A program made the translations under genes and the position numbers. This document shows, piece after piece, positions 938-60,978 of a stretch of DNA of 64,000 nucleotides. Source of the DNA: an uncultured Acidobacteriota bacterium (GTDB lineage Bacteria > Acidobacteriota > Polarisedimenticolia > Polarisedimenticolales > DASRJG01); NCBI GenBank assembly GCA_964511835.1, contig CAZEII010000004.1, positions 64,339-128,338 of the forward strand. Direction: 5' to 3'. The notes under the pieces are model-generated. The model searched no databases, had not been told where the DNA came from, and worked only from the letters and a program-made list of their open reading frames with translations. Numbering within the stretch: the stretch's first letter is position 1; every line of letters starts with the position of its first letter.

Positions 938-1678
938 CTACTTCTTGGGCGGGAAGGTCGGGTTCGCGGTCCCCGGCGTTCCGCCGGGCGTCGTCGGTGT
1001 CGGGTTGGGCTTGAACGCGCCCCGCTGATCGAGATCGAAAATCGTGAAGACCCACTCGCTGTACTCGGTCTTGTCGCGCCACCGGCGGAACGGCTTGTCG
1101 GTGCACTTCGACTTCACGCCGGCGATCGGGAGGCCCGTCGGATCGGTCGGCGCGCCGCCCTTGCCGGTGATGTCGGTCGTCGCGCCGATGCCGGTTGCGG
1201 GCGGTGCGCTCGACGGCGGGAAGCCCGAGGGCTGGCCGATCCCTCCGGGCTGGCCGGGGGCTCCCGGAGGCGGATTCAGGCCGCCGAGACCGCCCGGGGC
1301 GCCCGGCTGGCCCACCGGCTGCGCCGTCGGGTCGTAGATTCCGCCGGCGGGGTTCGCGTAGATCAGCTGCCACTTGCCGTCCTTGACGAGCGGATCCTTC
1401 CAGAGATGGCGCAGGTAGTACTGGTTTCTCTTCCCCGGCTCCATCAGCTCCTTGAGCTCGAGGGGCAGCTTCCCCTGATCCACCTGGAACCGTTTGATCG
1501 CGCGCACGATGTCCTGCGCGCGGAACATCATCTCGGCCTCGGCGTCCCGGCGAACCACGTCCTTCCACGATTGAACGGCGACCGTCGACAGGATCAGCAT
1601 GATGGCGAGTCCCGCCATCAGCGCGACCATCAGAGCGCCGCGCTCCTTCGCGCTCGCCGCGCTCCGCCCGAGTCTCAC
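938..1678 (-). CDS. atypical pseudopilin-like protein with Gly/Pro-rich insert (246 aa)
   Basis: This is the 3' part of track ORF 938..2605. The GTG at 1678 overlaps the stop of the upstream gene (GTGA). The N-terminus reads KERG/ALMVALMAGLAIMLILSTVAV, a pilin-type hydrophobic helix. AQDIVRAIKRFQVDQGKLPLELKEL resembles G-type pseudopilins. There is no Glu at +5. Confidence 0.7.
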   Translation of the reverse strand: MRLGRSAASAKERGALMVALMAGLAIMLILSTVAVQSWKDVVRRDAEAEMMFRAQDIVRAIKRFQVDQGKLPLELKELMEPGKRNQYYLRHLWKDPLVKDGKWQLIYANPAGGIYDPTAQPVGQPGAPGGLGGLNPPPGAPGQPGGIGQPSGFPPSSAPPATGIGATTDITGKGGAPTDPTGLPIAGVKSKCTDKPFRRWRDKTEYSEWVFTIFDLDQRGAFKPNPTPTTPGGTPGTANPTFPPKK

Positions 1679-2439
1679 GGCGTCGTACCCGCGGGGACCG
1701 TGACGTTGACCGAGGCCGGCGAGGAGGGAAGCGCGCACTCCGGATGCCCGTTCAATCCGGCGTCGGTGACGACCAGCTTGATGACGTAGAGCCTCGGGGT
1801 GCTCAAGTAATCGTAGGTGCACGTGACCGTCGTGGTGTGCACCACCGGCTGGTTGTTCCCGCAGTCCCAGGCGTAATCGGCGATTCCGCTCTCGAGGTCG
1901 GTCGACGTCGAGCCGTCGAGGGTGGCCGCGCTGACCTGCGTGCCGAGGGTGCCGGCCGGCAGCGACTGAGCGGCCGGAGGCACGATCACCGCGGTCGGGG
2001 CCGTGTTGCTGGCGCAGACGGCGACCGTCGTGATGTTGATCTTGACGGTCTGCGTGAGAGCGCCGGACGTCGCGGTGACGGTGATCTGCGCCTCGGGGTT
2101 GTCGTTCGTCACCCGGAGCACGACGGTCGCCCTGCCGTTGTTGTCGGTCTGGGCCTGCGCGGCGTTGGCTTCCTGTCCGTTGACCAGGAACTTGGCGCTG
2201 CTCGTCGTGAACAGGACGGACAGCCCGGCGACCGGAACGCTCTGATCGCTGACCACGACCGCGGCGACGTCGGTCGTCTGCGTGGTCACCCCGGGCGGGA
2301 AGTCCACCGTCGAAGGACTGGCCACCATGCTCATCTTGTAGTCCTTCCCCGCGGTGATCGGCGTGTCCTCGCAGCCGCTCGCGAGCCCCAACATCGCGAG
2401 GAACGCGGCCACGAGCCCCACTTTCATGATCGTTCCCAT
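1675..2439 (-). CDS. lipoprotein with bacterial Ig-like (Big_1-type) and PKD-type domains (254 aa)
   Basis: Start is the internal ATG at 2439 of track ORF 1675..2820, with GAGGAG 7 nt upstream. MGTIMKVGLVAAFLAMLGLASGC carries a lipobox. LDGSTSTDLESGIADYAWDCG...YVIKLVVTDAGL is a PKD-like signature. Confidence 0.75.
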   Translation of the reverse strand: MGTIMKVGLVAAFLAMLGLASGCEDTPITAGKDYKMSMVASPSTVDFPPGVTTQTTDVAAVVVSDQSVPVAGLSVLFTTSSAKFLVNGQEANAAQAQTDNNGRATVVLRVTNDNPEAQITVTATSGALTQTVKINITTVAVCASNTAPTAVIVPPAAQSLPAGTLGTQVSAATLDGSTSTDLESGIADYAWDCGNNQPVVHTTTVTCTYDYLSTPRLYVIKLVVTDAGLNGHPECALPSSPASVNVTVPAGTTP

Positions 2440-2474: not shown

Positions 2475-2870
2475 TCAGAAGTCGGAATAGCTGCGGCCGT
2501 CGAGGGAGGTCCCCTCGGCTCCGCTCTTGACGCCGGCGATCCCCGGCTCGGTGGTGATGTCGGACTCGTCCAGCTCCGCCTGCTCCGTCGCCCACGTGTC
2601 GGCACTTTCGGTGAACGGGTCCTTCGGAATCGCCTGCAGATAGTGGTCGTCGACGAGGGCCTGAAGATCGGCCGGGTACTTCCCCTTGTCGGCGAAGTAC
2701 TGGTTGATCAGCGTGCGCATCGTGTAGAGGTCTTGCTGGAGGACCGCTTCCTTGGCCTTGACGATGCTCCGCCTGTAGTTCGCGACCGCGACGGCCGAGA
2801 GCAGACCGATGATCGCGCAAACGACCAGGAGCTCGATCAGCGTGAATCCCCGCTGGCCTCTCGTTGGCAT
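2475..2870 (-). CDS. type II secretion GspG-like pseudopilin (131 aa)
   Basis: MPTRGQRG/FTLIELLVVCAIIGLLSAVAV is a canonical prepilin leader with Glu+5. QQDLYTMRTLINQYFADKGKYPADLQALVDDHYLQAIPKDPF matches the T2SS-G core pattern. Start moved to the second Met of track ORF 2475..2888. Confidence 0.85.
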   Translation of the reverse strand: MPTRGQRGFTLIELLVVCAIIGLLSAVAVANYRRSIVKAKEAVLQQDLYTMRTLINQYFADKGKYPADLQALVDDHYLQAIPKDPFTESADTWATEQAELDESDITTEPGIAGVKSGAEGTSLDGRSYSDF

Positions 2871-2874
2871 CGGT

Positions 2875-3363
2875 CTACCAATCCGCATAGCGCGTCCCGT
2901 CGAGGGCGGTCGCCTTGCTCTTCGTGTGCACGTCGAAGATGTTCATCCCGTCCGAAGCCCAGGAATCCGGCCGGTCCTTGCTCGAGCGCGTCGCCCAGTC
3001 GGGCGTTCCCGTGATCGGGTCGCGCGGCAGGCGGCGGAGGTACTTCACCTTCGTGCCGACCGCATCCCCGATGTCGAACCCCTGGTAGAGCCACTCCAGC
3101 TTCTCCGGGTAGTGGTCGTCGTTGACCCCGTTCAGCTTCGAGGCCATCTGGGAGTTGTGCTCGGCCTCCCACTGGAAGCGATCGATCGCCGTGCGGATGT
3201 CGCGGAGGGCCTGGCGGTATTCGAGCTCCTTTCGCCGCTTCACCCAGGTGTTCGCGACCGGCACGGCGGCGGAGGCGAGCACGAGGATGATCGCGGAGCA
3301 GCAGACCAGCTCCACGAGGGTCAAGCCCCGCTCCCCGCGCCGGCTCCCGAGCACGCGCGTCAT
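2875..3363 (-). CDS. GspG-like pseudopilin, second copy (162 aa)
   Basis: RGERG/LTLVELVCCSAIILVLASAAV is a prepilin-type N-terminus with Glu+5. ALRDIRTAIDRFQWE...YLRRLPRDPITG is a G-type core. ATG at 3363, 4 nt after the secretin stop. Confidence 0.8.
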   Translation of the reverse strand: MTRVLGSRRGERGLTLVELVCCSAIILVLASAAVPVANTWVKRRKELEYRQALRDIRTAIDRFQWEAEHNSQMASKLNGVNDDHYPEKLEWLYQGFDIGDAVGTKVKYLRRLPRDPITGTPDWATRSSKDRPDSWASDGMNIFDVHTKSKATALDGTRYADW

Positions 3364-3367
3364 GGCG

Positions 3368-5830
3368 CTACGGCTCCACGGCCACCGGCGCCGTGAGGAA
3401 GCTCGCCGGGGTGTTGCGCGCCTGCGGATCCTTGACCGAAGCTCCCGTCCAGCCGAAGCCGCAGTCTCCCGGGTTGACCGCCTGGAATTGGAACGTCGCC
3501 AGCGTCCCCGAGCCGGACATGCCGTCTCCCCCGCCCAAGCGCGACAGGCCGACGATGATCTCCCCGCCGCCCGGAGAGTCGGTCGCCAGGAAGACGGTGT
3601 TGGTCCCGTCGCCGTTCAAGAACGGTCCCTGCACGGCGGGCGGGACGAACTCGAGCACTTGGCGGTTGTAGCGGAGGTGGAACGGGACCGAGCCGACGTT
3701 GGTCGCGTTCTCGATCCTGACCTCGACGATCACGCGGTCGCCGACGCGGTAGGTCGGCGCCGAAGGCACCAGCCGCACGGTCGCGGGGCTCGCGGGAGGC
3801 TGATTGTCCTGATTGTTTTCCCCACCGGTTGGAGGCGTCTCGGTCGTGCCGCCCTGCTCGGTGCCACCCTTCTCCTCGGGCGGAGGCGGCGGCTGCTCCG
3901 TGCCCGGGCTCGCCCCCGGGCTCGTGGCCGGCGGTGGCGACGAGCCTCCCGTGGTCGGCGGCGTGGGCACGGGCACCGGCACGGGGGCCGTCACGCGATT
4001 CTGCTCGACCACTCCGGCGGGTTGCTGCTGCTCGGCGGCCGGCTCGGGGGCCGGCGACTCCACCGGCGGCAAGTACGGCTTCGTCGGGTTCGGAGCGACG
4101 TCGAGCTTGCTGCTCCCGTCGTCGGGCTCGGCGAACGGCGAGACCCCCATCACCCCGCGCACGGGGCCGCGCAGCCGCATGTTGTCCTCGGTGCCGACCC
4201 ACAGCGTCTGCAGGTCGTCCTCTTGGATGTCCGGAATGCGGACGATGTACGGCGTCAGCGTCAGGACGATGTCGGTCTCCTCGACGTCGGTGGATCTCGT
4301 CGAGAAGACGTTGCCGACCCCCGGGATGTCCATGATGCCGGCGACGCCGCCGCGCGAGGCGGTGTCGTCGCGTTTGATCAGGCCGGCGAGCAGGTTGGTC
4401 TCGCCGTCTCTCAGGCGAATGACCGTTTGAACCTGGCGTGTGCCGATGATCGGCTGCTTGACGCCGGTCCCGAGGTCGACCGTCCCCGCGAGGTTCGACA
4501 CCTCGACTTGGACCTTGAGCGTGACCTCCTTGTTGTGATGGACGCGCGGCTCGATCTGAAGCGTGATACCGACGTTCTGGTAGGTGAAGGAGGTGATCGG
4601 GACGATGTTGCCGCCCACCGTCTGGGAGCTGTTGAAGGACGTGTTGGGGATCGGGACGCGATTCGCGATGACGATCTCCGCCTTCTCACCCTCGCTGACG
4701 CGGATCTGCGGCTGCGCGATCGACTTCGTATCGGTGTCGCTCTTCAGGAAGTTGATGACGACCGACGGGATCGGGCCCAGGAGCCAGTTCCCCTTCTGCT
4801 TGAGCGCGGAGAGATTGTTCAGCGGAAGCGATTTCGTGCCGTCGAGGAAGGACAGCGTCAGCGTCTTCGACGAGAGGTCGATCCCCAGCGTCTGGAGGGT
4901 CTTGCGGTTGATCTCCAGGAGCTGCACGTCGATGATGACCTCGCCCTTCGACTTGTCGTTCGAGTCGATCAGCTTGTCGGCGATCGCGACCTTGTCGGGA
5001 GTGTCCTTGATCGACACCGAGTTCAGAGCGTCGTTCTCCGCGACCTGGCGCGAATTCAGGAGCGTGCGGATGACGGAGACGACCTGCTTGGTCTCGGCGC
5101 TGGAGAGATAGAACGTCCTGATGACCTGGTCTTCCAGCTCCTGCCGCTTCTGCCGGTTGTCGGGGGCGATGAGGAGCGTGTGCTCGTCGATGATCTTGTA
5201 GAAGTTCTTCGTCTGGAGCATCAGCACGTCGAGCGCCCGCTCGAGCGTCACGCTGCCGATCTCGATCGTCATCGGCTTGTTGAGGTCGGTCTTCTCGTCG
5301 TAGATGAAGTTGATCTGCGAGGCCTTGCCGATGACGTCGAAGATCTGGCCGATCGGCCGGTCGCGGAACTGCACCTGGATCGGGATGTTCGACTTCGCGG
5401 ACAGCTTCGGCGGCGCGAGCGCCTGTTTTGCGGCCTTCTCCTTGAGGCGCTCCATCTCGGAGGGCTGCTCGTCGCGGCGGCGGATCATGATGAGGGCCTT
5501 GTCCAGCTCGTCGGCGGCGTGCTGATTGCCGGGGTTCAGAAGGAGCGTTTGCTGGTACTCGGCCACCGCCAGGTCCCACTGCGCGGACTTCGCGTACCGC
5601 TTCGCCTTCTCGAAGTGCTGGGCGGAGGCCTTCAGCTTGGCCCGGGCGAGGGCGATCTGGTAGCGGGTGTTCCCCGGATCGAGCGACGTGGCCTTGCTGT
5701 ACTGGAGGACCGCCTGATCGTAGTTCTCGCGGCGGGACTCCTGCTCGGCCGTGCTGAACGCCTTCTGCGCGGCGCAGCCGAACGTCCCGAGGGCCACGAT
5801 GATCGCCGCCGCTCCCGCGAATCGATTCAT
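3368..5830 (-). CDS. secretin (GspD/PilQ family) with N-terminal lipoprotein-TPR module and C-terminal Pro-rich linker plus cohesin-like domain (820 aa)
   Basis: - Start at Met15 of track ORF 3368..5872: MNRFAGAAAIIVALGTFGC, a possible lipobox.
- TPR-like repeats: YDQAVLQYSKATSLDPGN, DLAVAEYQQTLLLNPGN.
- N0/N1 secretin-N repeats: IRTFYLSSAETKQVVSVIRTLL...SVSIKDTPDKVAIADKLI.
- Secretin core: QPIIGTRQVQTVIRLRDGETNLLAGLI...GIMDIPGVGNVF...TDIVLTLTPYIV.
- PVPVPVPTPP-type linker.
- C-terminal VGDRVIVEVRIENATNVGSVPFHLRYNRQVLEFV. Confidence 0.9.
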   Translation of the reverse strand: MNRFAGAAAIIVALGTFGCAAQKAFSTAEQESRRENYDQAVLQYSKATSLDPGNTRYQIALARAKLKASAQHFEKAKRYAKSAQWDLAVAEYQQTLLLNPGNQHAADELDKALIMIRRRDEQPSEMERLKEKAAKQALAPPKLSAKSNIPIQVQFRDRPIGQIFDVIGKASQINFIYDEKTDLNKPMTIEIGSVTLERALDVLMLQTKNFYKIIDEHTLLIAPDNRQKRQELEDQVIRTFYLSSAETKQVVSVIRTLLNSRQVAENDALNSVSIKDTPDKVAIADKLIDSNDKSKGEVIIDVQLLEINRKTLQTLGIDLSSKTLTLSFLDGTKSLPLNNLSALKQKGNWLLGPIPSVVINFLKSDTDTKSIAQPQIRVSEGEKAEIVIANRVPIPNTSFNSSQTVGGNIVPITSFTYQNVGITLQIEPRVHHNKEVTLKVQVEVSNLAGTVDLGTGVKQPIIGTRQVQTVIRLRDGETNLLAGLIKRDDTASRGGVAGIMDIPGVGNVFSTRSTDVEETDIVLTLTPYIVRIPDIQEDDLQTLWVGTEDNMRLRGPVRGVMGVSPFAEPDDGSSKLDVAPNPTKPYLPPVESPAPEPAAEQQQPAGVVEQNRVTAPVPVPVPTPPTTGGSSPPPATSPGASPGTEQPPPPPEEKGGTEQGGTTETPPTGGENNQDNQPPASPATVRLVPSAPTYRVGDRVIVEVRIENATNVGSVPFHLRYNRQVLEFVPPAVQGPFLNGDGTNTVFLATDSPGGGEIIVGLSRLGGGDGMSGSGTLATFQFQAVNPGDCGFGWTGASVKDPQARNTPASFLTAPVAVEP

Positions 5831-5873
5831 CCTCGACACCGTTTGTCCCCCGTTTCGAATGCCGGCGCTCACG

Positions 5874-6509
5874 TTATTTCCCGCGCAGGAGAGGCAGCTC
5901 GCGGACCTGGCCCTTGAACTGCGGGTTGACGAAGCTGATGACGACGGATTCGTACCGGATCTCGTCGATGCGGAACTGGGTCTTGACGATCTCCCCCGCC
6001 TTCGCGACGAAGGTCTGGTCGTTCTCCTCGAACGCCGCGATCCGCCCGTTGGGCGGCCCGACGAACCCCAGGAACTTGAACGCGATCGCGGGAGGCTGCG
6101 GCGCCGGCGTCGGCGTGGGATGGAGGCGAAGCTCCGCCTGTCGCTCTTCTTCCCTTTTGGCCGCCTCGAGCGCGGCGATCCGCGCGCGCTCCTCCGCTTC
6201 CTTCTGGGCCTTCGCCGCCGCGGCGGCCGCCGCCCGCATCTGCTTCACCTGCGCCCAGGACGGCGGGCGCACCGCGTACTTGAACAGGTCGCGGCCCGCG
6301 GGGTCGTATTTGACCTCGGCCTTCTCGAGCTGCTCCATGTGGACGACCGGAGTCTTCCCGATCGGCGACGCCTTGCGCGCCTCCGCGCGCTTGGCGGCGG
6401 CGGCCTCGGGAGGGGACGGGGTCCCCCATGCGCGCCAGAGCCAGACGGCGGCGGCGATGACGAGCCCGGCGACGAGCCAGGCCTCGCGGCGCGACATCCT
6501 TCTGGCCAT
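5874..6509 (-). CDS. PilP/GspC-like membrane-anchored alignment protein (211 aa)
   Basis: N-terminal TM helix (AWLVAGLVIAAAVWLW), an Ala/Glu/Lys coiled segment, a Pro-rich spacer, and a C-terminal beta domain (IAFKFLGFVGPPNGRIAAFEENDQTFVAKAGEIVKTQFRIDEI). Located between the PilO-like gene and the secretin. Its start shares 1 nt with the upstream stop. Confidence 0.6.
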   Translation of the reverse strand: MARRMSRREAWLVAGLVIAAAVWLWRAWGTPSPPEAAAAKRAEARKASPIGKTPVVHMEQLEKAEVKYDPAGRDLFKYAVRPPSWAQVKQMRAAAAAAAKAQKEAEERARIAALEAAKREEERQAELRLHPTPTPAPQPPAIAFKFLGFVGPPNGRIAAFEENDQTFVAKAGEIVKTQFRIDEIRYESVVISFVNPQFKGQVRELPLLRGK

Positions 6510-7129
6510 CAGGCCCCCTGCTTCGGAGCGATCGGCTTCTTGCCGATGTCCTCGAGCGCCGCGTCGGGGCCGATGAAATAGGTCGCCAGCGTGATGTTCA
6601 GCTCGACGACGTCATTCGACTTCCCGGCCCCGAGCGCGACGCGCTCGATGACGAGGAAGTTGTCCGAGCTCTCCACGGCCTGGATGAACTTCCGCAGGCT
6701 CGAATAGCCTCCGGTCAGGGGCACCACGGTCGCGAAGCGCTCCAGCGCGCCTTCGTCGACCGGCTCGTTCTCGTATTGCACGCGATCGGCGGCGATGCCG
6801 AACTGCTTCGCCAGCTTGTTGGTTTCGAGCTGCACGCCGACCATTCGGCGTTGTCGCGTCGAGAGGACGTCGCCGGCGAGATGCTTCATGTCGTCGCGCG
6901 CCTTGACGAGCGACGTCGCGTAGGTCTCCCGCGCCACGACCTCCTTCTCGCGCGCGCGGACGACCTGGATCTGCGGGCTCGACTCGTCGGTGAGCTGCTT
7001 GTAGCGGGCCACCTTGGGCCGCACGTAGACCACCGAGACGACCACGTTCGCGATCAGGAGCGCCCCCAGGACGAGCAGGATCTTCCCCGTGGCCTCTCGG
7101 ATGTCGAACCGGGCGGCGCGCGCGTTCAT
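6509..7129 (-). CDS. pilO: PilO/GspM-like inner-membrane pilus or secretion assembly protein (206 aa)
   Basis: Start is the internal ATG at 7129 (ATGA overlap with the pilN-like stop at 7126). MNARAARFDIREATGKILLVLGALLIANVVV is a single TM helix, followed by a coiled region and a C-terminal ferredoxin-like part (VVPLTGGYSSLRKFIQAVESSDNFLVIERVAL). Confidence 0.7.
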   Translation of the reverse strand: MNARAARFDIREATGKILLVLGALLIANVVVSVVYVRPKVARYKQLTDESSPQIQVVRAREKEVVARETYATSLVKARDDMKHLAGDVLSTRQRRMVGVQLETNKLAKQFGIAADRVQYENEPVDEGALERFATVVPLTGGYSSLRKFIQAVESSDNFLVIERVALGAGKSNDVVELNITLATYFIGPDAALEDIGKKPIAPKQGA

Positions 7130-7833
7130 CGCAGTCCCTCGAGGGCGGACGGCGGCGCCTCGCCCCCTTCTTCCTCGGCCTTCTTCGCGGCGTCGAGAAT
7201 GTGGGGGATGTCCGGATGCTCCCGGGACAGACGGCCGTCGGGGTCGTAGAGGAACCGGAGCTGGAACGTCACCTCGGCGGCGCCGCTCTGAGTCTCGCTT
7301 CGGACCGGCTCGACGTCGGCGAAGTGGGGATCGACGATCAGCGCGCGCTCGAACTCGAGGAACGACTCGAAGCTTTGCGCCACACCTTCCACGACGACCG
7401 GAACGGTGCCGGCGAACACGCCCGTGCGCGCTCCGCCCCCTTCTTTCGCGCCGTAGACCGGTCGGACGGCGGTCATGCGCACCTCGTAGGGGACGACCTT
7501 CTCGAGCGTGTTGAAGAGCCGGGTCCAGGAGAGGCCCCGGCGCAGGATGATGTCGTTCGCCTTGTCCGCCTGGAACTGCATCGTCTTGAGGTCGAACGCG
7601 CGCGCCGAGGTGAGCGCGGCCTCCTCGCGCTTGTCGAGGTCCGCCTGCTGCCTCTCGACGGAGCCGAGATCGGCCTGAAGCGCCTGGAGCTTCCGGGAGG
7701 CCTCGGCGGCGGAGCGGATGTTCCAAGCGGTGAACAGAACGACCGCGGCGAACAGGACGCCGTGGACCGTCCAGATCGGCGTGTTGTTGTGGAACGGCCG
7801 CGAGGCGAGGTTGAGCTCGAGGGAGCGCATCAC
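7126..7833 (-). CDS. pilN: PilN-like fimbrial assembly protein (about 235 aa)
   Basis: LELNLASRPFHN followed by TM helix VHGVLFAAVVLFTAWNI and coiled coil LQALQADLGSVERQQADL is typical of PilN. The GTG at 7833 or the ATG at 7830 overlaps the pilM-like stop. Confidence 0.75.
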   Translation of the reverse strand: MMRSLELNLASRPFHNNTPIWTVHGVLFAAVVLFTAWNIRSAAEASRKLQALQADLGSVERQQADLDKREEAALTSARAFDLKTMQFQADKANDIILRRGLSWTRLFNTLEKVVPYEVRMTAVRPVYGAKEGGGARTGVFAGTVPVVVEGVAQSFESFLEFERALIVDPHFADVEPVRSETQSGAAEVTFQLRFLYDPDGRLSREHPDIPHILDAAKKAEEEGGEAPPSALEGLR

Positions 7834-8854
7834 GCCACGGTCCTTCCGGACGCCGCACCGAGCGCCGGCGCCAGGACCTGCCCTTGAACCGGCTCGAACC
7901 GCGAGCCGTTGGCCGCCTCGACCGCGCCCGCGGGATCGATCGCCTTGACGTTCACGATCCCCAGTCGCTCGAGCAGGGGCACGACCTCGGAGAGCGGAGG
8001 GGAGATCGCGCGCACGAACACCGTGCCGACGCCGCTTCCGGCGAGCTTCTCCGTGTAGTAGGAGAAGGACGACGTCAGCTCCCGCGCCATCACGGCGAGG
8101 CGGCCTTGGACCTCGTCGTCCTCCCCCTCGCCGCCCGCGTAGGACTTGCAGCGGAAGAAGACGACCCGGTCGGCGCGGACGATCGCGAGCGTGAAGTAGC
8201 CGCGCGTGCAGTTGAGCAGCGCGGCATCGGACCCCGACGCCACCGCCTTCGCGATGTCGGGGCGCGCGAGATTGAAGAGGCTCGGGGTGCAGAGGTCGAT
8301 GAGGCCGGGGCGCGCGCCTGCGGCCTCGAACGCCGCCTCGTACTGCTCGATGACGGAGCGCATCATGACCGCGACGAGCACGTGCAGCTCCTGGCCCGCC
8401 GCCGGCAGGACCCAGGACGACAGCACGGCGTCCTCGAGGCGGAACGGCACCGACCGCCTCAGCTTGAAGCGGAGCATCTCGTTGAGCTGCTTCCGCCCGG
8501 CCGGGCGCTCGGGGAGGCTGACGATCGAGACCTTGGCGAGATTGTCCGGGAGGATGAGCGACACCCGCCCGGGCTTGGTGCCGCTCTGCGCGAACAGCTC
8601 CCCCGCCTGACGCGCGAGCTCCGCGAGCGCGCCGACGTTCGGGCGGGAGACCGTGGCGGCGCCCGCGCTGTCCGGCGTCGCCTGGATCCGGAACGCCTCC
8701 AGGAGCGGCCGCTCCCGGCGGCGCGGCTTCGTCCGCACCAGCGTCATCTGGCCGCGGTCGATCTCGATCGCGACCGGAGGGTAGGCCGGGCGGAGGTCGA
8801 GCAGCGTCTCGGGATCGAGCCGCTTCAGGCGCGCGAGAACGGGGCCGAGGGCTT

Positions 8855-8858
<4 letters not shown>
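7830..8858 (-). CDS. pilM: PilM-like actin-fold assembly ATPase-like protein (or cytoplasmic GspL-like; 342 aa)
   Basis: Start is Met108 of track ORF 7830..9179 (ATGA overlap with the ATPase stop at 8855). LILPDNLAKVSIVSLPERPAGRKQLNEMLRFKLRRSVPFRLEDAVL is the classic PilM segment. Position directly upstream of the pilN-like gene fits. Confidence 0.8.
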
Positions 8859-10507
<1,649 letters not shown>

Positions 10508-10521
10508 CGCGCTTCCTTCGC

Positions 10522-11739
10522 CTAGAACTTCGAGTTGCCCACCGCTTGGAAGAGCGGCATGTAGATCGCGAGGATCATCATCGTGACGATGACCGCCATG
10601 AAGACGAGCATGAGCGGCTCGATCATCGTCACCATCTTCCCCAGCCGGTAGTCGATCTCCTCCTCGGAGAATTCCGACGCGTTGTCGAGCATCTCGACGA
10701 GCGCGCCGGTGGACTCGCCGACCTTGACCATCTCGATCGCCATCTCGCCGATGTACCCGGTGCGCTCGAGCGACTCCCACAGCGACTGCCCTTCGCGAAC
10801 CTTGACGGTGGCCCCCATCAGCTCCTTCTCGAGCACGTAGTTCCCGACGGCGCGCGCGGCGAGATCCAAGGAGGTGACCAGCGGGATCCCGCCGGCGAGG
10901 AGGGTCGAAAGCGTGCGCGTGAACCGGTTCTGCGCGTAGTCCTTGATCACGCCGCCGACCAGCGGAAGCCTCATCTTCAGGCGGTCGAAGCCGTAGCGGC
11001 CCGCCGGAGACCGCTTCCAGACGACGAACGCGGCCACGCCGACGACGACCGCGGCGAGGATGAACTGCCACATCGACTGGAGGAAGACGGCCGTGTTGAC
11101 CAGCATCTCCGTCATCCACGGGAGCGTCGTCCCCAGCTCCTTGAACAGGCCGGCGAACGTCGGAATGACCTTGAAGATCATGATGCCGACGATGACGATC
11201 GACACGCAGACGAGGATCGCGGGGTAGATCAGCGCGCCGACCACCTTCTTCTGGATCGCCATGATCGAGCGGGTGTAGGTGATGTAGCGCTTGAGGACGT
11301 TGGGCAGCTCGCCCGACCGCTCGCCCGACGCCAGGCTCGCCGCGTAGAGCTTGGGGAACAGGTCCCCCTGCGCGGCGAAAGCCTCGGAGAGCGCCGCGCC
11401 CGCCTTCACCCGCTCCCGGATGTCCATCAGCGTCTTCTTGAAGACGAGGTTCTTCCGCCGGTCGATCAGGACGTCGAGGCTCGTCAGGATCGGGAGCCCC
11501 GCGCGGAGGAGCGCGGAGAATTCCTGGTTGAAGAAGAGGAACTCGCGCGCCGCGATCCGGGGGCGGACGGAGAGCGCCTCGGCGATCGCGGAGAAGACCG
11601 GGTTCTGCCGCCGAAGCTCGAGGACGAGCATGTCCTTGTCCTCGAGCTCGCGCCGGAGCGCCGCCTCGGTCTCGGCGGCCACCGTGCGCTCAACGATCTC
11701 CCCTGTCGGGAGCGCCATACGGCAGACGAATTGAGCCAT
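10522..11739 (-). CDS. GspF/PilC family platform protein (405 aa)
   Basis: Two repeated T2SSF-type domains (FFNQEFSALLRAGLPILTSLDVL and FTRTLSTLLAGGIPLVTSLDLA). Three TM segments. C-terminus ILAIYMPLFQAVGN. Confidence 0.95.
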   Translation of the reverse strand: MAQFVCRMALPTGEIVERTVAAETEAALRRELEDKDMLVLELRRQNPVFSAIAEALSVRPRIAAREFLFFNQEFSALLRAGLPILTSLDVLIDRRKNLVFKKTLMDIRERVKAGAALSEAFAAQGDLFPKLYAASLASGERSGELPNVLKRYITYTRSIMAIQKKVVGALIYPAILVCVSIVIVGIMIFKVIPTFAGLFKELGTTLPWMTEMLVNTAVFLQSMWQFILAAVVVGVAAFVVWKRSPAGRYGFDRLKMRLPLVGGVIKDYAQNRFTRTLSTLLAGGIPLVTSLDLAARAVGNYVLEKELMGATVKVREGQSLWESLERTGYIGEMAIEMVKVGESTGALVEMLDNASEFSEEEIDYRLGKMVTMIEPLMLVFMAVIVTMMILAIYMPLFQAVGNSKF

Positions 11740-11742
11740 CGC

Positions 11743-12459
11743 CTACCTCGGCCGCGCCTGGAGGGTCAGGAAGAGAGCGCGCTTGGATTCCGGGTTCTGC
11801 GCCGCGCCCAACATGAGCATCCGGCCGACGGGCAGGACGACCGACGCGCTGTAGACGTCCTGGACCTTCTCCTTGCCGTCGGCGCCCCTCGTGATCCTCT
11901 GGAGAACGAAGCTCGTCAGCTTGACGCTCTGGTCGGAGACGGTGTCGATGTCGTAGGCGACGCGATATTCGTCCGACAGGTTGACCGTCACGCGCCCGCC
12001 CTCGACGCCGGTGACTGCTCGTCCTCCCAGCGGCTCGTAGGCATTCCACTTGGTGAAATCGCCGAGCGTCTCGGCGACGCCCCGCACGTCCCGCGTCATC
12101 GACGACGGCGGGATGATGCGGCCGGCCTCCTGCTCGCGCCGGTCGGTCCCCAGAAAGAGACTCATCGCGACCTCGACGTTCCGCGGCGCGACGTCGAAGC
12201 TCTGGAGCAGGGACGCGACGCGATCGAGGATCGATACGCGGTCCTGGACGGTCAGCGTCTTGAGCCGCGGCTGGAGCGTGAGCGTCCCCTGCGCGGAGAG
12301 GATCGGGCTGACCAGCTCCGCGGCATCGGCGAGCGACTTGAACTTGACCTCGTACGCGCGCGCCGAGACGGGATCGGCACCGGGAGCGGCATCCGCCGCC
12401 GCCAGCGTGGTGGGTCCGGCGAGGGCGAGGAGCAGGGGGACGAGAGCGAGCCGTCTCAC
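11743..12459 (-). CDS. exported stand-alone secretin-N (NolW-like) domain protein (238 aa)
   Basis: GTG at 12459 overlaps the anti-sigma stop (GTGA). Signal peptide RRLALVPLLLALAGPTTLAAA. YEVKFKSLADAAELVSPILSAQGTLTLQPRLKTLTVQDRVSILDRVASLLQSFD follows the secretin N-domain pattern. The C-terminal half is uncharacterised and beta-rich. Confidence 0.6.
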   Translation of the reverse strand: MRRLALVPLLLALAGPTTLAAADAAPGADPVSARAYEVKFKSLADAAELVSPILSAQGTLTLQPRLKTLTVQDRVSILDRVASLLQSFDVAPRNVEVAMSLFLGTDRREQEAGRIIPPSSMTRDVRGVAETLGDFTKWNAYEPLGGRAVTGVEGGRVTVNLSDEYRVAYDIDTVSDQSVKLTSFVLQRITRGADGKEKVQDVYSASVVLPVGRMLMLGAAQNPESKRALFLTLQARPR

Positions 12460-12941
12460 AGGTGAAGATCTCCGTTGTAGACCATGACGATCTGCGTCTC
12501 GCCGACCGTCAGATCGACGACCTGCGAGAGGCCGCTCGCCGCTTGGACCTCGACGTCCGCTCGGGGCGAGATCGCCGCAGGCGGCGCGGTGACGGCCACA
12601 GGCGGCCCCTCGACCTGCCGATCGTGGAGCGTCACGTATCCCGACAGCAGCACCAGCGCGAAGAGCGCCGCGGCCGCGACGCGGCGGGGCCAGAAGGCAT
12701 ACTCGACGAGGACGTCACGCGATCCAGGATCGGTCCCGACGCGGCGCGCGACCCGCGCCGACACCTCGTCGAGCGTCTCTTGCGGAACGGGCTGGAGCGC
12801 GAGCAATCCGAACAGGAGCGTCGGATCGTGGAGGGCGAGCGCCCTGCGACACGAGGCGCAGCCACGGACGTGCTCGAGCATCGTGCGGCGGGCGTCGCCC
12901 GACGCGCCGTCGAGACGTTCCGGATCGACGTGCGCGATCAC
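12456..12941 (-). CDS. anti-sigma factor, zf-HC2 type, single TM (161 aa)
   Basis: HVRGCASCRRAL is an HxxxCxxC motif. The TM helix is VAAAALFALVLLSGYV. The GTG start overlaps the sigma factor stop (GTGA at 12938-12941). Confidence 0.8.
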   Translation of the reverse strand: MIAHVDPERLDGASGDARRTMLEHVRGCASCRRALALHDPTLLFGLLALQPVPQETLDEVSARVARRVGTDPGSRDVLVEYAFWPRRVAAAALFALVLLSGYVTLHDRQVEGPPVAVTAPPAAISPRADVEVQAASGLSQVVDLTVGETQIVMVYNGDLHL

Positions 12942-13513
12942 GATTCGTCTCCTCCGATCCCTTCGCGCTTGAGCCCTTCGCGGAGAATGCGGCGCGCTTG
13001 GAGCAAATGATTTCGAACCGTCGATTCCGTCACGCCGAGCACGCGCGCGACTTCCGCGGTTTCGAGCCCTTCGATCTCCTTCAAGACGAACGTCGCGCGC
13101 TGCTTGGGAGCGAGCCGAGCGGCCATGCGAGCGAAGGTGCGCTGCAGCTTGCCGAGGTCGACCAGCTCGTCCGCGGGGCGCCCTGGATCTCGCAGGCTCT
13201 CACCTGCCCCTTCGGGCAGCGCTTGGAGAAATCCCTGAGGGCCTCGCTCGCGGAGATGATCGATCGCGGCGTTCACGGTGATGCGGTACAGCCAGGTATC
13301 GAATCTCTTCTCGAGATCGAACCGCTGCAGCACTCTCCAGAGCCGAAGGAAGACCCCCTGGGCGACGTCCTTCGCGTCTTCCCAGTCACCGGTGATCTGG
13401 AAGGCCGTTCGGACGACACGCTCTCGCTTCCGGAGGACGAGGTCCTCGAAAGCCCGGCGGTCGCCTAAGGCGGCGGACCGGATCAGATCGGTGAGGTCCT
13501 CGTCGTCCCGCAT
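12938..13513 (-). CDS. ECF (sigma-70 group 4) RNA polymerase sigma factor (191 aa; an alternative GTG at 13573 would give 211 aa)
   Basis: Region 2 is DVAQGVFLRLWRVLQRFDLEKRFDTWLYRITVNAAIDHLR. Region 4 is FVLKEIEGLETAEVARVLGVTESTVRNHLLQARRIL. ATG at 13513 chosen because the extra 20 aa are low complexity and contain a GGAAC-N16-GTC motif. Confidence 0.85.
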   Translation of the reverse strand: MRDDEDLTDLIRSAALGDRRAFEDLVLRKRERVVRTAFQITGDWEDAKDVAQGVFLRLWRVLQRFDLEKRFDTWLYRITVNAAIDHLRERGPQGFLQALPEGAGESLRDPGRPADELVDLGKLQRTFARMAARLAPKQRATFVLKEIEGLETAEVARVLGVTESTVRNHLLQARRILREGLKREGIGGDES

Positions 13514-13646
13514 CCTCGGCTTTCGGCTTCGGGAAGTCTCGGACCCGCTTTTGGTACGGGGTTCCCCGTCCACGCGTCTAGCCCGAGTCCGTCCGAGCTC
13601 GGATCTCTAGTCAACCGCCGGAGTTTAGCAGGCGCGCCGGGGCTTT

Positions 13647-29609: not shown

Positions 29610-31619
29610 ATGCGAGCCCCCCGAACTTCAATTCTTGTCGTGCGACGACGAGTTCGCATTTCGGCGGCCGGGCTCGCTCTCGCCTTATTGGTCGGTCCTT
29701 GGGGCTGCTCGCGGCAACCCGCCCCACCGTCCCAGACGGCCTCCGATGGCAAAACGGAGGCCGCGATCGGCGGACCGGAAGGCCGGTTCGTGGGCTCCGA
29801 GGCGTGTCGCGAATGCCACGCGCGTGAGTTCCAGGCCTGGTCGGGCAGCCGCCATCACGCGACGCTCCGCACGTGGAAGCAGGGCGAAGCTCTGAGACTG
29901 TCGATCGCAGCCGGCTCCGTTCCGTTTCGAGTCGAGGCGAACGGCTCCGCCGCGGGTCCGGGGAGCGACGGCGTGGAGACGATCGGACAGGTCGCGCTCC
30001 TGATCGGCGGGCGACATCGCGAAGAAGCGATCGTCCGGCTGGCCGATGGACGCATGCAAGTTTTCCCTCTCGCCTTCGACGTGGACCGCAATCAGAGCTT
30101 CGAGCCCCTGAGGGAGATCGCCGGGGGCGAGCGACCTCCCGGCGACGTCGTCGACTTCTGGATGCGCGCGGGACGGAACGCCGACCTAGCGTGCTACGGC
30201 TGTCACGCAACCGGTCAAACTCTATCGATCGCCGCGACGACGCCTTCGGGGCTCGCGCTTCCCGCCTCTCGCTGGGTCGAGCCGGGGGTCGGCTGCGAAG
30301 CGTGCCACGGACCCGGTGGGCCCCACCTCGATGCCGCGCGCGCGGGCAAGCCGATGGCGGTCGCCATGAGAATGCCTCGCGACGGAGGCGTGGCGACGAT
30401 CGACGCCTGCGCGGCCTGTCACGGACTGCGCGACGTCCTCCCCTCGCCGTTCGACGCGTCCCCCGCCCACCTCTACGGCGAGCCGCTTCAGACGGCGGCG
30501 GATCCCCTTCTCTCGGTCGGATCGAACGCCGAGTTCCGGGACCCATTCTTTCCGGATCTCCTCCCGGCGACCTATCAGCAAGAGGCGATCGCCTTCTCGC
30601 AATCGGGATGCGCGCGCAAAGGAGGGATGACCTGCGCGGCCTGCCACGACGTCCACTCGGGCGCGCCCTCCGCCGCGCTGCAGTCGGAGGACGGCGGCAA
30701 CGCGGTCTGCGCGGGCTGCCATGCCGCGGAGGTGGCCGCCGGCGAGAAGCACACCTTTCACGCAACGGGCACGGCAGGGAGTCGGTGCGTCGATTGCCAC
30801 ATGGCTCCGATCGTCCGCGGGCCAGGGCACGAGCCGGCGCGCGACCACTCGATGGCCCCGCCGGTCGCGGGTCCGGGGCAAGTGCCGGCGGCTTGCGCGG
30901 CGTGCCACACCGCTGCCAAGAACGCGGCCGCCGTCGCGGTGGCGTGGAAGCTACGCCCCGAAGGTCGCGCGGCCAAGCGCCGGCTCGAGCTCGGCGCCGC
31001 GGTCGACCTCGCATCGCGGGGCGCTGCCGGATCGGCCGCCGCACTCGCTCGGCTCGCCGATGACGGCGATCGAGGCTGGTTCGTCCGTTGGGCGATGCTC
31101 CAGTACTTGCCGGGCGGGCAGCAGCCCGCCGGCGAGGACGTCCTCGCTCCGGTGCGACGCGCGCTGTCCGATCCCAACCCGGCGATTCGCCGCGCGGCCG
31201 CCAGAGCGTTGGGGCGGTGCGGCAAGCCGTCGGACGTCGAGCTGTTGCAGCGTACGACGGACGACGCCGATCCGTGGACCGCGCTCGAGGCGGCGCATGC
31301 GATGGGCCTGCTCAAGGCGCCGACGGCCGGAGCGCGGCTGCTCCAGCTCTTGAAGCGGTCGGACCTCATTGCCGACGCGCGCGCTCAGTACATGTACGGC
31401 CACGCCTGCTTGGTCGGCCAGGATGCGCCCCGCGCGGAGAAGGCGCTGCGCCGCGCGCTCGAGCTCAATCCGATGATCGTCGGCGCCATCAACGACCTCG
31501 GCCTGGCGCTCGTCGCGCAAGGAAAGCGCGACCAGGCGATCGAAGCGTGGAAGCGGGCGCTCGACATCAATCCGCGCTTCTCCGCCGCGAAGCGCAACCT
31601 CGAGACCGCTAAACCCTGA
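29610..31619 (+). CDS. exported multiheme c-type cytochrome (8 CXXCH) fused to HEAT and TPR repeats (669 aa)
   Basis: Signal peptide ISAAGLALALLVGPWGC. Heme sites are CRECH, CYGCH, CEACH, CAACH, CAACH, CAGCH, CVDCH, CAACH. HEAT-like repeat DPNPAIRRAAARALGRCG. C-terminal TPR (AEKALRRALELNP, AIEAWKRALDINP). Confidence 0.85.
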   Translation: MRAPRTSILVVRRRVRISAAGLALALLVGPWGCSRQPAPPSQTASDGKTEAAIGGPEGRFVGSEACRECHAREFQAWSGSRHHATLRTWKQGEALRLSIAAGSVPFRVEANGSAAGPGSDGVETIGQVALLIGGRHREEAIVRLADGRMQVFPLAFDVDRNQSFEPLREIAGGERPPGDVVDFWMRAGRNADLACYGCHATGQTLSIAATTPSGLALPASRWVEPGVGCEACHGPGGPHLDAARAGKPMAVAMRMPRDGGVATIDACAACHGLRDVLPSPFDASPAHLYGEPLQTAADPLLSVGSNAEFRDPFFPDLLPATYQQEAIAFSQSGCARKGGMTCAACHDVHSGAPSAALQSEDGGNAVCAGCHAAEVAAGEKHTFHATGTAGSRCVDCHMAPIVRGPGHEPARDHSMAPPVAGPGQVPAACAACHTAAKNAAAVAVAWKLRPEGRAAKRRLELGAAVDLASRGAAGSAAALARLADDGDRGWFVRWAMLQYLPGGQQPAGEDVLAPVRRALSDPNPAIRRAAARALGRCGKPSDVELLQRTTDDADPWTALEAAHAMGLLKAPTAGARLLQLLKRSDLIADARAQYMYGHACLVGQDAPRAEKALRRALELNPMIVGAINDLGLALVAQGKRDQAIEAWKRALDINPRFSAAKRNLETAKP

Positions 31620-36615: not shown

Positions 36616-37959
36616 ATGACGAGCCCCATCTCCGTCGCGCTCCTCGTTCTCGCCGTGGGCGCCACGGCTCCCAGCGATCCTCTCAAGAGCCCGGATCCCG
36701 GCGCGCGGGTCGCGGCCATCGAATCGCTCGCCAAGCAGAAAGGGCGAACCGCGGTGCCCCAGATCGCTCCGTTCGTCGAGGATCGGGACGAAGGCGTGGC
36801 GGTCCGAGCGGTCGCGACTCTCTTCGAGCTGGGAGGCGAGGCGACGCTGGCGCCGATCCGCAAGGCGCTTCGGTCCCCGTCCGCGCGCGTCCGCACCGAA
36901 ACCGCCCAACGCGCGGGCGACTCTCGCGCCCTCGCGCTCGTCGGCGATCTCGGGCGCCTCCTCGAGGATCACTTGCCCGGCGTCCGTCGGACCACCGTCG
37001 AAGCGCTCCGCGCCATTCGGGACCGGTCGACATATCCGTTTCTCGTGACCGCGACGTCGGACGAGATCTCGGGAACGGCTGCGAGCGCGATCGCAGGACT
37101 CGAGGACCTGGGCGATGCGCGCGCGCTTCCCAGGATCGCGCAGCTCGCGGGATCCTCCTCCGTCGAGGTGCGCGCTGCGGCAGCCCACGCGATTCCGGCT
37201 CTCTCGGGGCTGACCTCCCACGCCGAGCTCTTCGCGCGCCTGACGCGAGACGCGGATCCCCTGGTCCGCCGATCGGCGGCCGCGGGATTGCGCCGGGGCG
37301 CGGCACCGGAGGCGATACCTGCGCTCGTGACGCTCTCCACCGACGCGGACACCAGCGTGCGCCGGATGGCGATCGTGGGGTTGCAGGAGCAAGCGAGTCC
37401 TCAGGCGACCGCCGCGCTGATCTCCCGGCTCAAGGATGCGGACGACAACGTCCGGGCCGCGGCGGTGCTGGCTCTGGGCGCGCGCCCCGAGGGCGGGCAG
37501 GCCTCACGGATCGCCGCGGCGGCGTCCGATCCCGCCGAGGGCGTCCGTGTCGCGGTGGCGTCGACGCTGGGAGACGTCGGCCGCCCGGATGATCTCGAGA
37601 CCCTTCGCGCGCTCGCAGCGGATCCCAAGTCCGTCGTGCGAGCGACCGCGGTCGTCGCGGCAGCTCGGGTGGGAGCGTCCGCGGCCCTTCCGATCGTCGA
37701 GGCTGCCGCGAAGGATTCCGACGCGATCGTGCGGCTTTCGACGGTGCGCGCGCTGAGCTTCATCCGCGAGCCGGCCGCTTTGCCGGCGCTTCGGGGCCTC
37801 GCCTCGGCCGGGGATCTGGCCTCGCGCATCGCAGCGATCGAGCAGCTCGGCGCGCGGAAAGACACGGGCTCGGTTGCGCTGCTTCGCAAGATCGCTCAGG
37901 ACCCGGTCGAGAAGCTGCGCTCCGCCGCCCGCCGGGCGCTCGAGGCGATCGGCGCGTGA
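36616..37959 (+). CDS. exported HEAT-repeat protein (447 aa)
   Basis: Signal peptide MTSPISVALLVLAVGATAP. At least 10 repeats of the D/S-x-x-VR-x-x-AA-x-AL type (SARVRTETAQRAG, SVEVRAAAAHAI, DPLVRRSAAAGL, DTSVRRMAIVGL, DDNVRAAAVLAL, AEGVRVAVASTL, KSVVRATAVVAA, DAIVRLSTVRAL). Confidence 0.85.
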   Translation: MTSPISVALLVLAVGATAPSDPLKSPDPGARVAAIESLAKQKGRTAVPQIAPFVEDRDEGVAVRAVATLFELGGEATLAPIRKALRSPSARVRTETAQRAGDSRALALVGDLGRLLEDHLPGVRRTTVEALRAIRDRSTYPFLVTATSDEISGTAASAIAGLEDLGDARALPRIAQLAGSSSVEVRAAAAHAIPALSGLTSHAELFARLTRDADPLVRRSAAAGLRRGAAPEAIPALVTLSTDADTSVRRMAIVGLQEQASPQATAALISRLKDADDNVRAAAVLALGARPEGGQASRIAAAASDPAEGVRVAVASTLGDVGRPDDLETLRALAADPKSVVRATAVVAAARVGASAALPIVEAAAKDSDAIVRLSTVRALSFIREPAALPALRGLASAGDLASRIAAIEQLGARKDTGSVALLRKIAQDPVEKLRSAARRALEAIGA

Positions 37960-47614: not shown

Positions 47615-47651
47615 GAGCTCCCCACCTCTCGAGCGTGGTGCCGACGTCCGG

Positions 47652-47680
47652 AAGATAGGTTTGGGGCCGGGGGGAGTCAA
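47652..47680 (-). promoter_or_regulatory. candidate sigma-70-type promoter for pilT
   Basis: Minus strand reads TTGACT-N17-TATCTT, 37 nt upstream of the pilT ATG. Confidence 0.4.
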
Positions 47681-47691
47681 ATCGGCCCGAT

Positions 47692-57249: not shown

Positions 57250-57813
57250 TCAGCTGCCGACGCGCACCACCCAAGTGCCGCTGATGCCGTCGACGTGGAG
57301 CTTGCCGGCCGTCGCGTCGGCGGACTCGCGCGTCGGGTATCCGCCGACGCGAACCTTGTAGAGGCTTCCGGAGGCACCCTCGGCGACCGCGTCGATGCGC
57401 ACGGGGTACTGCTTGGCGCGCAGCGAGCGGACGACCTCTTCCGCGGCTTGACGATCGCGCCCGACGAAGACCTGCACGAACCACGAGCCTGCGGAGACCG
57501 GCGTCGCGGGCGCGGGAGTCGCGGCCGGCTTCGATTGCGCCTCGCGTCCCGGCTCGGCTTCCTTCCCAGGTCCGGAGAGCGTATCGAAGAAGGTCACCTT
57601 TTCCGACGCCTCGACGGCCTCCTGCTCGACATTTCCCGAGGCGTCCGCCGAGGAGGAGCCGTGCGACGGCGCTCCCCATCGCTCGACGGCCCTCCCGAGC
57701 TCGAACGCGCCGAACAGCAGCGCCAGAAGCACGCCGAATGCGACGGCGAGGAGAGCCCCCTCGAGCCGGATCTCCCTCCGCTCTCCGCGGTCGTCGTCGA
57801 CGTCAGGTCGCAT
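57250..57813 (-). CDS. SPOR domain (peptidoglycan-binding) membrane protein (187 aa)
   Basis: TM helix ALLAVAFGVLLALLFGAF. C-terminal SPOR domain: WFVQVFVGRDRQAAEEVVRSLRAKQYPVRID......YKVRVGGYPTRESADATAGKL. Confidence 0.85.
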   Translation of the reverse strand: MRPDVDDDRGERREIRLEGALLAVAFGVLLALLFGAFELGRAVERWGAPSHGSSSADASGNVEQEAVEASEKVTFFDTLSGPGKEAEPGREAQSKPAATPAPATPVSAGSWFVQVFVGRDRQAAEEVVRSLRAKQYPVRIDAVAEGASGSLYKVRVGGYPTRESADATAGKLHVDGISGTWVVRVGS

Positions 57814-60948: not shown

Positions 60949-60978
60949 AGTATACGGGCCGCTCGCAAAAGGGGTCAA
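60949..60978 (-). promoter_or_regulatory. candidate sigma-70-type promoter giving a leaderless nfeD transcript
   Basis: Minus strand reads TTGACC-N18-TATACT-N8-ATG(60940). The -35 overlaps the stop codon of the upstream gene. No SD is present. Confidence 0.4.

Follow-up and report, generated by a model that had tools for sequence, protein, structure and literature searches.

A lipoprotein-type secretin with a short tetratricopeptide module and a tethered C-terminal cohesin in Polarisedimenticolia acidobacteria

We analysed a stretch of 64,000 nucleotides (referred to as the window in this text) from an uncultured acidobacterium of the class Polarisedimenticolia (contig CAZEII010000004.1, positions 64,339 to 128,338), which carries a secretin gene on its minus strand. 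Type II and type III secretion, type IV pili and filamentous phages all use secretins as exit ports. The protein encoded here consists, in this order, of a lipobox, a short tetratricopeptide repeat (TPR) module, the N0 and N1 domains, the secretin pore, a conserved tail of 35 amino acids (aa), a disordered acidic tether of about 115 aa and a cohesin. The machine to which this outer-membrane secretin belongs is a divergent type IV filament system. All coordinates are window positions, and features lie on the minus strand unless (+) is given.

The secretin gene and its domains

The open reading frame (ORF) extends over 834 codons from a GTG (3368..5872, window translation) and ends in a stop codon at 3368-3370. 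On two independent assemblies, which encode the identical protein, gene callers chose the ATG at 5830 and thus a product of 820 aa. An earlier note on this DNA, made from the letters alone, had placed the gene at 3368-5830, which is exactly this product, and all the peptides it quoted (ALGTFGC, IVLTLTPYIV, PVPVPVPTPPTTGGSSPPP, VGDRVIVEVRIENATNVGSVPFHLRYNRQVLEFV and GTLATFQFQAV) are present in the translation. The note had also suggested a hidden Markov model (HMM) search for the component domains. In this search, Secretin and Cohesin scored above the Pfam cut-offs, and Secretin_N, STN and TPR below them.

The signal peptide and lipobox occupy residues 1-19 (5774..5830). The sequence MNRFAGAAAIIVALGTFG followed by Cys19, read directly, satisfies a PROSITE-type lipoprotein rule. 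In an alignment with 40 homologues that are 58-84% identical to the window secretin, the pair Gly18-Cys19 is invariant (40/40), with the consensus LLxGC followed by AAQKAY, and the lipoprotein-type N-terminus claimed by the earlier note is thereby borne out. The short TPR module comprises residues 20-138 (5417..5773), with five helices and 2-3 TPR motifs. Pfam gives sub-threshold TPR_2 and TPR_14 matches at residues 28-102, and a phmmer search of the PDB with residues 19-147 finds designed consensus-TPR proteins (E 7e-11 to 1e-7). The AlphaFold2 (AF2) model shows helices at residues 37-50, 55-81, 85-98, 103-121 and 125-138, and residues 21-120 are arranged as helical hairpins with a predicted local distance difference test score (pLDDT) of 87-96. 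The PDB matches and the modelled hairpins confirm a short TPR module of two to three repeats. The further proposal that the gene fuses a pilotin to a secretin agrees with a TPR fold behind a lipobox. However, PilF, PilW, Tgl and TadD were absent among the 44 PDB sequences matching the TPR module at E <=10, and there are just two to three repeats, so that the fusion is plausible by analogy only.

The N0 domain (residues 151-223; 5162..5380) is STN-like. Pfam STN/N0 matches residues 173-223 with E 3e-4 (20.8 bits against a cut-off of 28.4), next to a FecR_C-like match, and the region adopts a beta-alpha-beta fold in the AF2 model. The N1 domain (residues 238-293; 4952..5119) matches Secretin_N, PF03958, with 27.5 bits, just below the cut-off of 28.2. 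Both folds are consistent with the AF2 model, and homologues of the window secretin bear precomputed PF03958 and PF07660 annotations. An N3-like domain and the secretin beta-barrel core follow at residues 297-531 (4238..4942), where Pfam Secretin covers residues 362-531 with E 4e-36 (124.5 bits against a cut-off of 27.5). A Foldseek search with the full model returned PilQ 6w6m (E 6e-17), GspD 5zdh and InvG, with E-values of 1e-17 to 1e-13, and the structural matches included the AspS-GspD and PulS-PulD complexes (5zdh, 6hcg).

Behind the core lies a conserved segment of residues 532-566 (4133..4237; RIPDIQEDDLQTLWVGTEDNMRLRGP...SPF), which forms two short helices in the AF2 model. Its invariant columns in the 40 homologues include P533, I535, D539, W544, V545, G546, T547, L553, R554 and F566. 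From its place in the protein we infer that it is the positional equivalent of the S-domain. The segment leads into a linker rich in Pro, Thr, Gly, Ser and Glu (residues 567-681; 3788..4132), whose residues 567-679 have a pLDDT below 50 in the full-length model; the low-complexity linker had been noted before, at the slightly different coordinates 3785-4140. Among the 40 homologues its sequence is unconserved, and yet it is always acidic and rich in Pro, Thr, Ser, Gly, Ala and Glu, with a length of 78-142 aa, a net charge of -3 to -29 and a Pro content of 7-30%.

The C-terminal module (residues 682-820; 3371..3787) had been described in the earlier note as cohesin-like, a reading that we can now make firmer. 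Cohesin PF00963 matches residues 693-784 with 27.4 bits (29.3 for the domain alone; cut-off 24.1), and a profile built from 48 homologous domains matches type II cohesins in the PDB and the Archaeoglobus cohesin with a best E of 9e-10. The AF2 model of residues 682-820 has a mean pLDDT of 97.1. The best 50 PDB matches listed by Foldseek for this model are all cohesins, with template modelling (TM) scores of 0.65-0.84 and 2xdh as the best match (TM 0.77), and the nine-strand jelly-roll fold of cohesins is present. Sequence matches and model together show that the domain is a genuine cohesin, and public annotation already calls such proteins 'cohesin domain-containing'. Within the domain, strands 3 and 5 and the stretch ahead of strand 8 are the most conserved; judging from crystal structures of cohesin-dockerin pairs, we take these elements to belong to the dockerin-binding sheet.

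The architecture is not confined to this genome. A protein search with the window secretin gave 3,523 relatives at E <=1e-10, the best 120 of which are 635-960 aa long; 101 of these 120 carry precomputed Secretin and Cohesin annotations. The best relatives come from metagenome-assembled genomes (MAGs) of Candidatus Polarisedimenticolaceae and Acidobacteria and are named 'general secretion pathway protein D' or 'cohesin domain-containing protein' at the source. In a survey that scanned one genome per species, we found 41 loci, almost all labelled Acidobacteriota and many of them Polarisedimenticolia. Two are free-standing cohesin paralogues, and the other 39 are secretin loci with the same gene order, five of them split or cut by contig ends. 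The order kept throughout is pilM, pilN, a gspM-like gene, a 211-aa gene, the secretin, two pseudopilins, a PKD lipoprotein (not always present) and a pilin-like gene. Even a relative that is 43% identical in the secretin part (P0343) retains the architecture and the whole locus, from the Lon protease via a sigma/anti-sigma pair of the extracytoplasmic function (ECF) type to the dUTPase.

The earlier note had raised the possibility that the ORF is really two genes. Such an artefact, in which a frameshift or mis-assembly in the low-complexity linker joins two genes, could be suspected from three of the 41 loci (L019, L020 and L026), where the cohesin ORF is separate from the secretin core in the same gene order. 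The simplest account of these few is an error or a recent break in a repetitive, GC-rich linker. In 34 of the 41 loci, which come from independent assemblies, cohesin and secretin core share one ORF; the same holds for more than 100 protein clusters, and the identical 820-aa protein was called on two further assemblies. We therefore reject the two-gene explanation, whose probability we consider negligible; the ORF is intact and represents one gene.

Selection acts on all folded parts of the protein. Against the four closest orthologues, the ratio of non-synonymous to synonymous substitution rates (dN/dS) is 0.08-0.12 for the cohesin, 0.09-0.21 from N0 to the core and 0.12-0.26 for the TPR module, while the linker reaches 0.47-0.75, compared with about 0.1 in the domains on either side. 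Only these four pairs were interpreted, because synonymous sites are saturated in more distant orthologues and make their ratios unusable. The values for cohesin and core are similar, and the cohesin is therefore as constrained as the pore. The complete layout is kept throughout the lineage, under purifying selection. Inspection for tandem repeats, promoters and terminators near the gene gave no informative result.

The operon and the type of machine

Upstream of the secretin, the operon encodes the parts of an assembly machine. The nearest gene (5874..6509) specifies a 211-aa membrane protein that is syntenic in nearly all related loci and matched no Pfam family; its C-terminal beta domain resembles the HR domain of GspC/PilP by eye, from which we infer that it is a putative GspC/PilP-like component. 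It is preceded by a GspM/PilO-like protein of 206 aa (6509..7129; NCBIfam T2SS_GspM_XpsM E 1e-4, Pfam T2SSM_b weak), a PilN-like protein (7126..7833; Pfam PilN E 1.4e-4), both syntenic in the related loci, and a PilM-like protein of 342 aa (7830..8858; NCBIfam pilM E 6e-7, Pfam PilM_2 weak). The assembly ATPase (8855..10507, 550 aa) is of the GspE/PilB type with an MshEN domain (Pfam T2SSE E 7e-133, MshEN E 2e-20) and scores almost equally against the PilB and GspE models. The platform protein GspF/PilC (10522..11739) matches NCBIfam GspF with E 3e-94, below the equivalog cut-off.

Between gspF and the anti-sigma gene lies a gene for a secreted protein of 238 aa (11743..12459) with a single N1-type Secretin_N domain (PF03958, 28.9 bits, above the cut-off) and no pore domain. 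A 289-aa gene occupies the equivalent position in a distant locus (L046). This protein could build an extra ring in the periplasm or act as a decoy for the N-domains of the secretin. The genes for an ECF sigma factor (12938-13573; Pfam Sigma70_r2, r4_2 and ECF) and a putative anti-sigma factor (12456-12941; a zf-HC2 gene is found at the equivalent position in L046) overlap each other and the first gene of the operon. The distant locus has the same arrangement, with the Lon protease gene in front, which suggests that the machine is under control of an envelope-stress type.

Directly downstream of the secretin is a GspG-like pseudopilin of 162 aa (2875..3363; Pfam N_methyl), present in all related loci with 38-77% identity. 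A second GspG-like pseudopilin follows (2475..2888; 131-137 aa, with a gene call of 131 aa; Pfam N_methyl E 2.5e-9), then a PKD-domain lipoprotein of 254 aa (1675..2439; Pfam PKD_4 weak) that is found in many, not all, related loci, and a pilin-like protein of 230 aa with a long Pro/Gly-rich stretch and a small C-terminal domain (938..1630), syntenic in most loci. The N-terminal half of the latter is GspG-like by eye, and the protein has no family match in Pfam or NCBIfam. By eye all three pilins of the operon are GspG-like (GspG model E 0.007). GspH, I, J and K were not recognised in the operon, and neither the PKD lipoprotein nor the 230-aa pilin-like protein matches a known minor pseudopilin. 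Pfam and NCBIfam scans of the operon genes also found no separate pilotin-like gene.

The secretin scores 127.3 bits against the GspD equivalog TIGR02517 (cut-off 351.35) and 101.2 bits against PilQ TIGR02515 (cut-off 284.35). No component of the operon reaches an NCBI equivalog cut-off, and the PilM, PilN and GspM-like matches are weak. Therefore we do not file the machine as a canonical type II secretion system or type IVa pilus; from its sequences it appears to be a divergent type IV filament system leaning towards type II secretion. At a distance of 35 kb from the operon, next to alanyl-tRNA synthetase, lies a gene for a 437-aa ATPase of the T2SSE family (46436-47749) with a PilT-like length. 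It may be a retraction ATPase and bears on the question of whether the machine makes retractable pili. MshEN domains of the type present in the assembly ATPase bind cyclic di-GMP in other systems. Elsewhere in the window, a gene for a SPOR-domain (septal peptidoglycan-binding) protein adjoins one for a GGDEF diguanylate cyclase (57250-58852).

Cohesin relatives and the possible role of the tether

With the cohesin-domain profile, a full HMMER scan of 1.84 billion representative proteins produced 12,099 matches at E <=0.001, 256 of them at E <=1e-30. The nearest single-domain relatives (40-70% identical) share one layout, a membrane anchor followed by a disordered tether and the cohesin. Across the subtype the anchor is a secretin, a lipoprotein signal (in proteins of about 170-200 aa) or, by eye, an N-terminal hydrophobic segment; proteins of the last kind are about 330-390 aa long, of which some 200 aa form a low-complexity linker. 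With 3-8 cohesins, the multi-domain relatives that score highest are scaffoldin-like. Among 45 multi-cohesin relatives scanned, six have a clear Dockerin_1 domain (best E 7e-15) and five have sorting tails for type IX secretion.

Free-standing paralogues have TonB_C, FG-GAP, GH16, sulfatase and housekeeping genes as neighbours. No consistent partner gene was found beside them, the exception being a divergent cohesin-like lipoprotein encoded directly upstream in two loci. In one of these (L023, from a Polarisedimenticolaceae MAG) the paralogue is flanked by this lipoprotein and by a 1,065-aa FG-GAP protein, which has a full-length yet sub-threshold Dockerin_1 match (20.6 bits against 22.9) followed by a cohesin of its own. 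We also considered the 162-aa pseudopilin of the operon as a dockerin, owing to a weak recurrent similarity (E 3-13), and rejected it since an alignment of its orthologs shows a GspG-like C-terminus.

As a separate observation, L023 (4981-10365) and L048 (1432-3201) are unrelated contigs, and in both a divergent cohesin-like lipoprotein of about 195 aa is encoded directly upstream of a membrane-anchored cohesin with a long tether. In L023 this cohesin pair is followed by a Cys-rich DUF4215 protein and the FG-GAP protein with its dockerin-like and cohesin modules. These pairs may constitute an acidobacterial cohesin-dockerin system, either in the periplasm or on the surface.

The C-terminal S-domain of secretins with known structure is periplasmic, beneath the outer membrane, and is bound there by lipoprotein pilotins (PMC10499894). 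The groove of one TPR lipoprotein, TadD, holds the last residues of the secretin RcpA (PMC10499894). Judging by these C-termini, the tether and cohesin of the window secretin would be periplasmic as well. Cys19 would be lipidated, and lipid and TPR module together would stand in for a separate pilotin, comparable to the lipid anchor of HxcQ and the TPR lipoproteins of type IV and Tad pili. The fused TPR module could hold the conserved post-core tail (residues 532-566) of its own or a neighbouring subunit, after the example of RcpA and TadD (PMC10499894). Every assembled channel would bear 12-15 cohesins in a crown, on flexible tethers that could each reach over about 10 nm or more around the periplasmic vestibule. 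There the cohesins might hold a periplasmic partner at the channel, either a protein with a dockerin-like tag awaiting export or an accessory factor. We thus favour the view that the protein is a self-contained liposecretin that uses its tethered cohesins to dock a protein partner in the periplasm, be it cargo with a dockerin-like module or an accessory factor, and give this reading a probability of about 45%.

Several observations weigh against it. The sole dockerin-like module seen in the clade is the sub-threshold one in L023; a protein search with the dockerin-plus-cohesin region of this protein gave no match, and a second FG-GAP protein beside another cohesin paralogue is without a dockerin. 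A dockerin-like partner, which the earlier note proposed to search for, did not turn up in the 64-kb window: a six-frame translation searched with tblastn, the domain HMM and a regular expression for EF-hand pairs gave only the secretin's own cohesin and a DnaK motif, and Pfam scans of about 50 window ORFs revealed no Dockerin and no Cohesin besides that of the secretin. A phmmer search of the window and 48 loci with the L023 module and two hand-written dockerin sequences, whose use makes this a weak test, found nothing. The N-terminal anchor could also sit in the inner membrane, and lipidation, membrane sorting and the membrane side of the cohesin are all carried over from other systems. Finally, tight cohesin-dockerin binding would hinder the release of a substrate, which favours an accessory partner over cargo. 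A stricter version, in which the cohesins are receptors that catch periplasmic proteins with a dockerin-like tag and feed them to the channel, so that a modular, transplantable tag-receptor pair specifies export, can draw on the conserved cohesin fold, the conserved strands of the dockerin sheet and the dockerin-like module beside a paralogue of the clade. Neither the window nor the conserved secretin loci yielded a dockerin that is linked to the secretin itself, and we regard this version as doubtful, with a small probability.

Other roles for the domain are conceivable. The beta-sandwich could bind peptidoglycan or another envelope glycan and thus fix or position the secretin, like the AMIN domain of PilQ or the LysM protein TsaP, with the paralogues serving as general envelope tethers. 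The occurrence of the domain on three kinds of membrane anchor with long tethers is what one would expect of ties that span the envelope. Moreover, the gene surroundings of its paralogues are unrelated to each other and partly of a housekeeping kind, the window scans gave no dockerin near the secretin, and cohesins share the jelly-roll fold with carbohydrate-binding modules. However, cohesins and not carbohydrate-binding modules make up the best 50 Foldseek matches listed, the sequence profiles match cohesins only, relatives of the subtype co-occur with real dockerins, and we know of no cohesin that binds a glycan. An envelope anchor of this kind is unlikely in our view. Alternatively, the cohesin could be a built-in assembly factor that acts in cis or between subunits during targeting or oligomerisation and has no role once the channel is built, while the lipoprotein paralogues would be pilotin-like for other complexes. 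As small lipoproteins, pilotins act on the C-termini of secretins (PMC10499894; PMC3276575), the domain exists in free-standing lipoprotein forms of about 170-200 aa, and the operon is without a pilotin gene of its own. But the N-terminal lipid and TPR module already fit the pilotin role better, it is difficult to see why a cis-acting chaperone should need a conserved tether of 80-140 aa, and the lipoprotein paralogues do not adjoin secretins, which makes such a factor rather improbable.

The earlier note had allowed for a cell-surface partner as well as for cargo, and a tether that crosses the outer membrane would turn the cohesin into an extracellular anchoring scaffoldin for secreted dockerin-bearing proteins beside their exit port. 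A Pro/Thr-rich linker followed by a cohesin is typical of extracellular anchoring scaffoldins, and the best-scoring relatives include multi-cohesin surface proteins with type IX sorting tails. Since the C-terminus is periplasmic in solved secretins (PMC10499894; S-domain in 5zdh, 6hcg), the cell surface is nevertheless the less likely half of that proposal. No known mechanism would pass a folded 15-kDa domain from a secretin C-terminus to the surface, and the N-terminally anchored paralogues, identified by eye, would put the same cohesin in the periplasm. Surface display thus appears very unlikely.

Known systems and further genes of the window

The individual parts of the protein are known from liposecretins, TPR-lipoprotein pilotins, S-domains, non-cellulosomal cohesins and anchoring scaffoldins; the literature searched held no description of their combination. 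To our knowledge, HxcQ of Pseudomonas aeruginosa has neither a TPR module nor a C-terminal cohesin extension. It resembles the window secretin in that its own N-terminus bears a lipoprotein signal and no separate pilotin is needed; self-piloting was shown for HxcQ (Viarre et al. 2009, as cited in PMC12475490), whereas for the window secretin it is only deduced. PilF, PilW and Tgl of type IV pili and TadD of Tad pili likewise combine a lipid-anchored TPR module with a secretin, and TadD binds the C-terminal tail of its secretin under the outer membrane (PMC10499894). However, these are separate proteins with 5-6 TPRs, while the window secretin has 2-3 TPRs fused before N0 and no specific similarity to them was detected. 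The S-domains of GspD, PulD and InvG (5zdh, 6hcg) are also periplasmic C-terminal extensions past the pore that serve protein-protein contact, but they are short helical pilotin-binding segments, to which the window secretin adds a disordered tether of about 115 aa and a folded cohesin of 139 aa.

Non-cellulosomal cohesins, such as those of Archaeoglobus fulgidus (2xdh) and Clostridium perfringens (2jh2), have the same fold, and anchoring scaffoldins share the layout of anchor, Pro/Thr linker and cohesin. The window protein differs in that its cohesin is anchored by a secretin in a diderm envelope, with a location that is likely periplasmic. Lineage-specific modules that fit a secretin to its envelope, like the cohesin, are also known from the AMIN domain of PilQ, from TsaP (6ve2) and, in the type II secretion system of Deinococcus, from belt and cap proteins (PMC10828601); these bind peptidoglycan or form rigid rings, and none is a flexibly tethered cohesin. 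A literature search found no published account of a secretin-cohesin fusion or of a cohesin in a diderm periplasm. A preprint on Omnitrophota describes dockerin-rich giant proteins beside type II-like loci and does not report cohesins on secretins, and the paper describing Polarisedimenticola makes no mention of pili, secretins or cohesins.

A class of Acidobacteriota that is widespread in sediment and soil has thus fixed a tethered docking module at an exit port, under selection as strong as that on the pore. The known add-ons of secretins are pilotin-binding tails and peptidoglycan-binding domains, and substrate recognition in type II secretion is a long-standing open question. A docking module kept under such selection implies a partner, and with it a secretion or assembly step that current models lack. 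If the partner is cargo, the machine would offer a natural modular system of substrate recognition for a type II-like apparatus, on which that question could be directly tested; if it is an accessory factor or the envelope, the cohesin would represent a new way to build and position secretins. A periplasmic location would, in addition, place a cohesin in the periplasm of a diderm bacterium.

The window contains further genes of unusual build. Three genes in the 64 kb (39500-41641 (+), 47692-49644 (-) and 60975-63170 (-)) encode a sulfatase/phosphodiesterase-type domain fused to a C-terminal TPR block, which is an uncommon architecture; one of the TPR blocks matches surface-lipoprotein assembly modifiers, and the start of the gene at 39500-41641 is uncertain. 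A 669-aa protein (29610-31619 (+)) has several multihaem cytochrome c motifs together with HEAT repeats and a TPR, and near it a protein of 447 aa consisting of HEAT repeats only is encoded at 36616-37959 (+).

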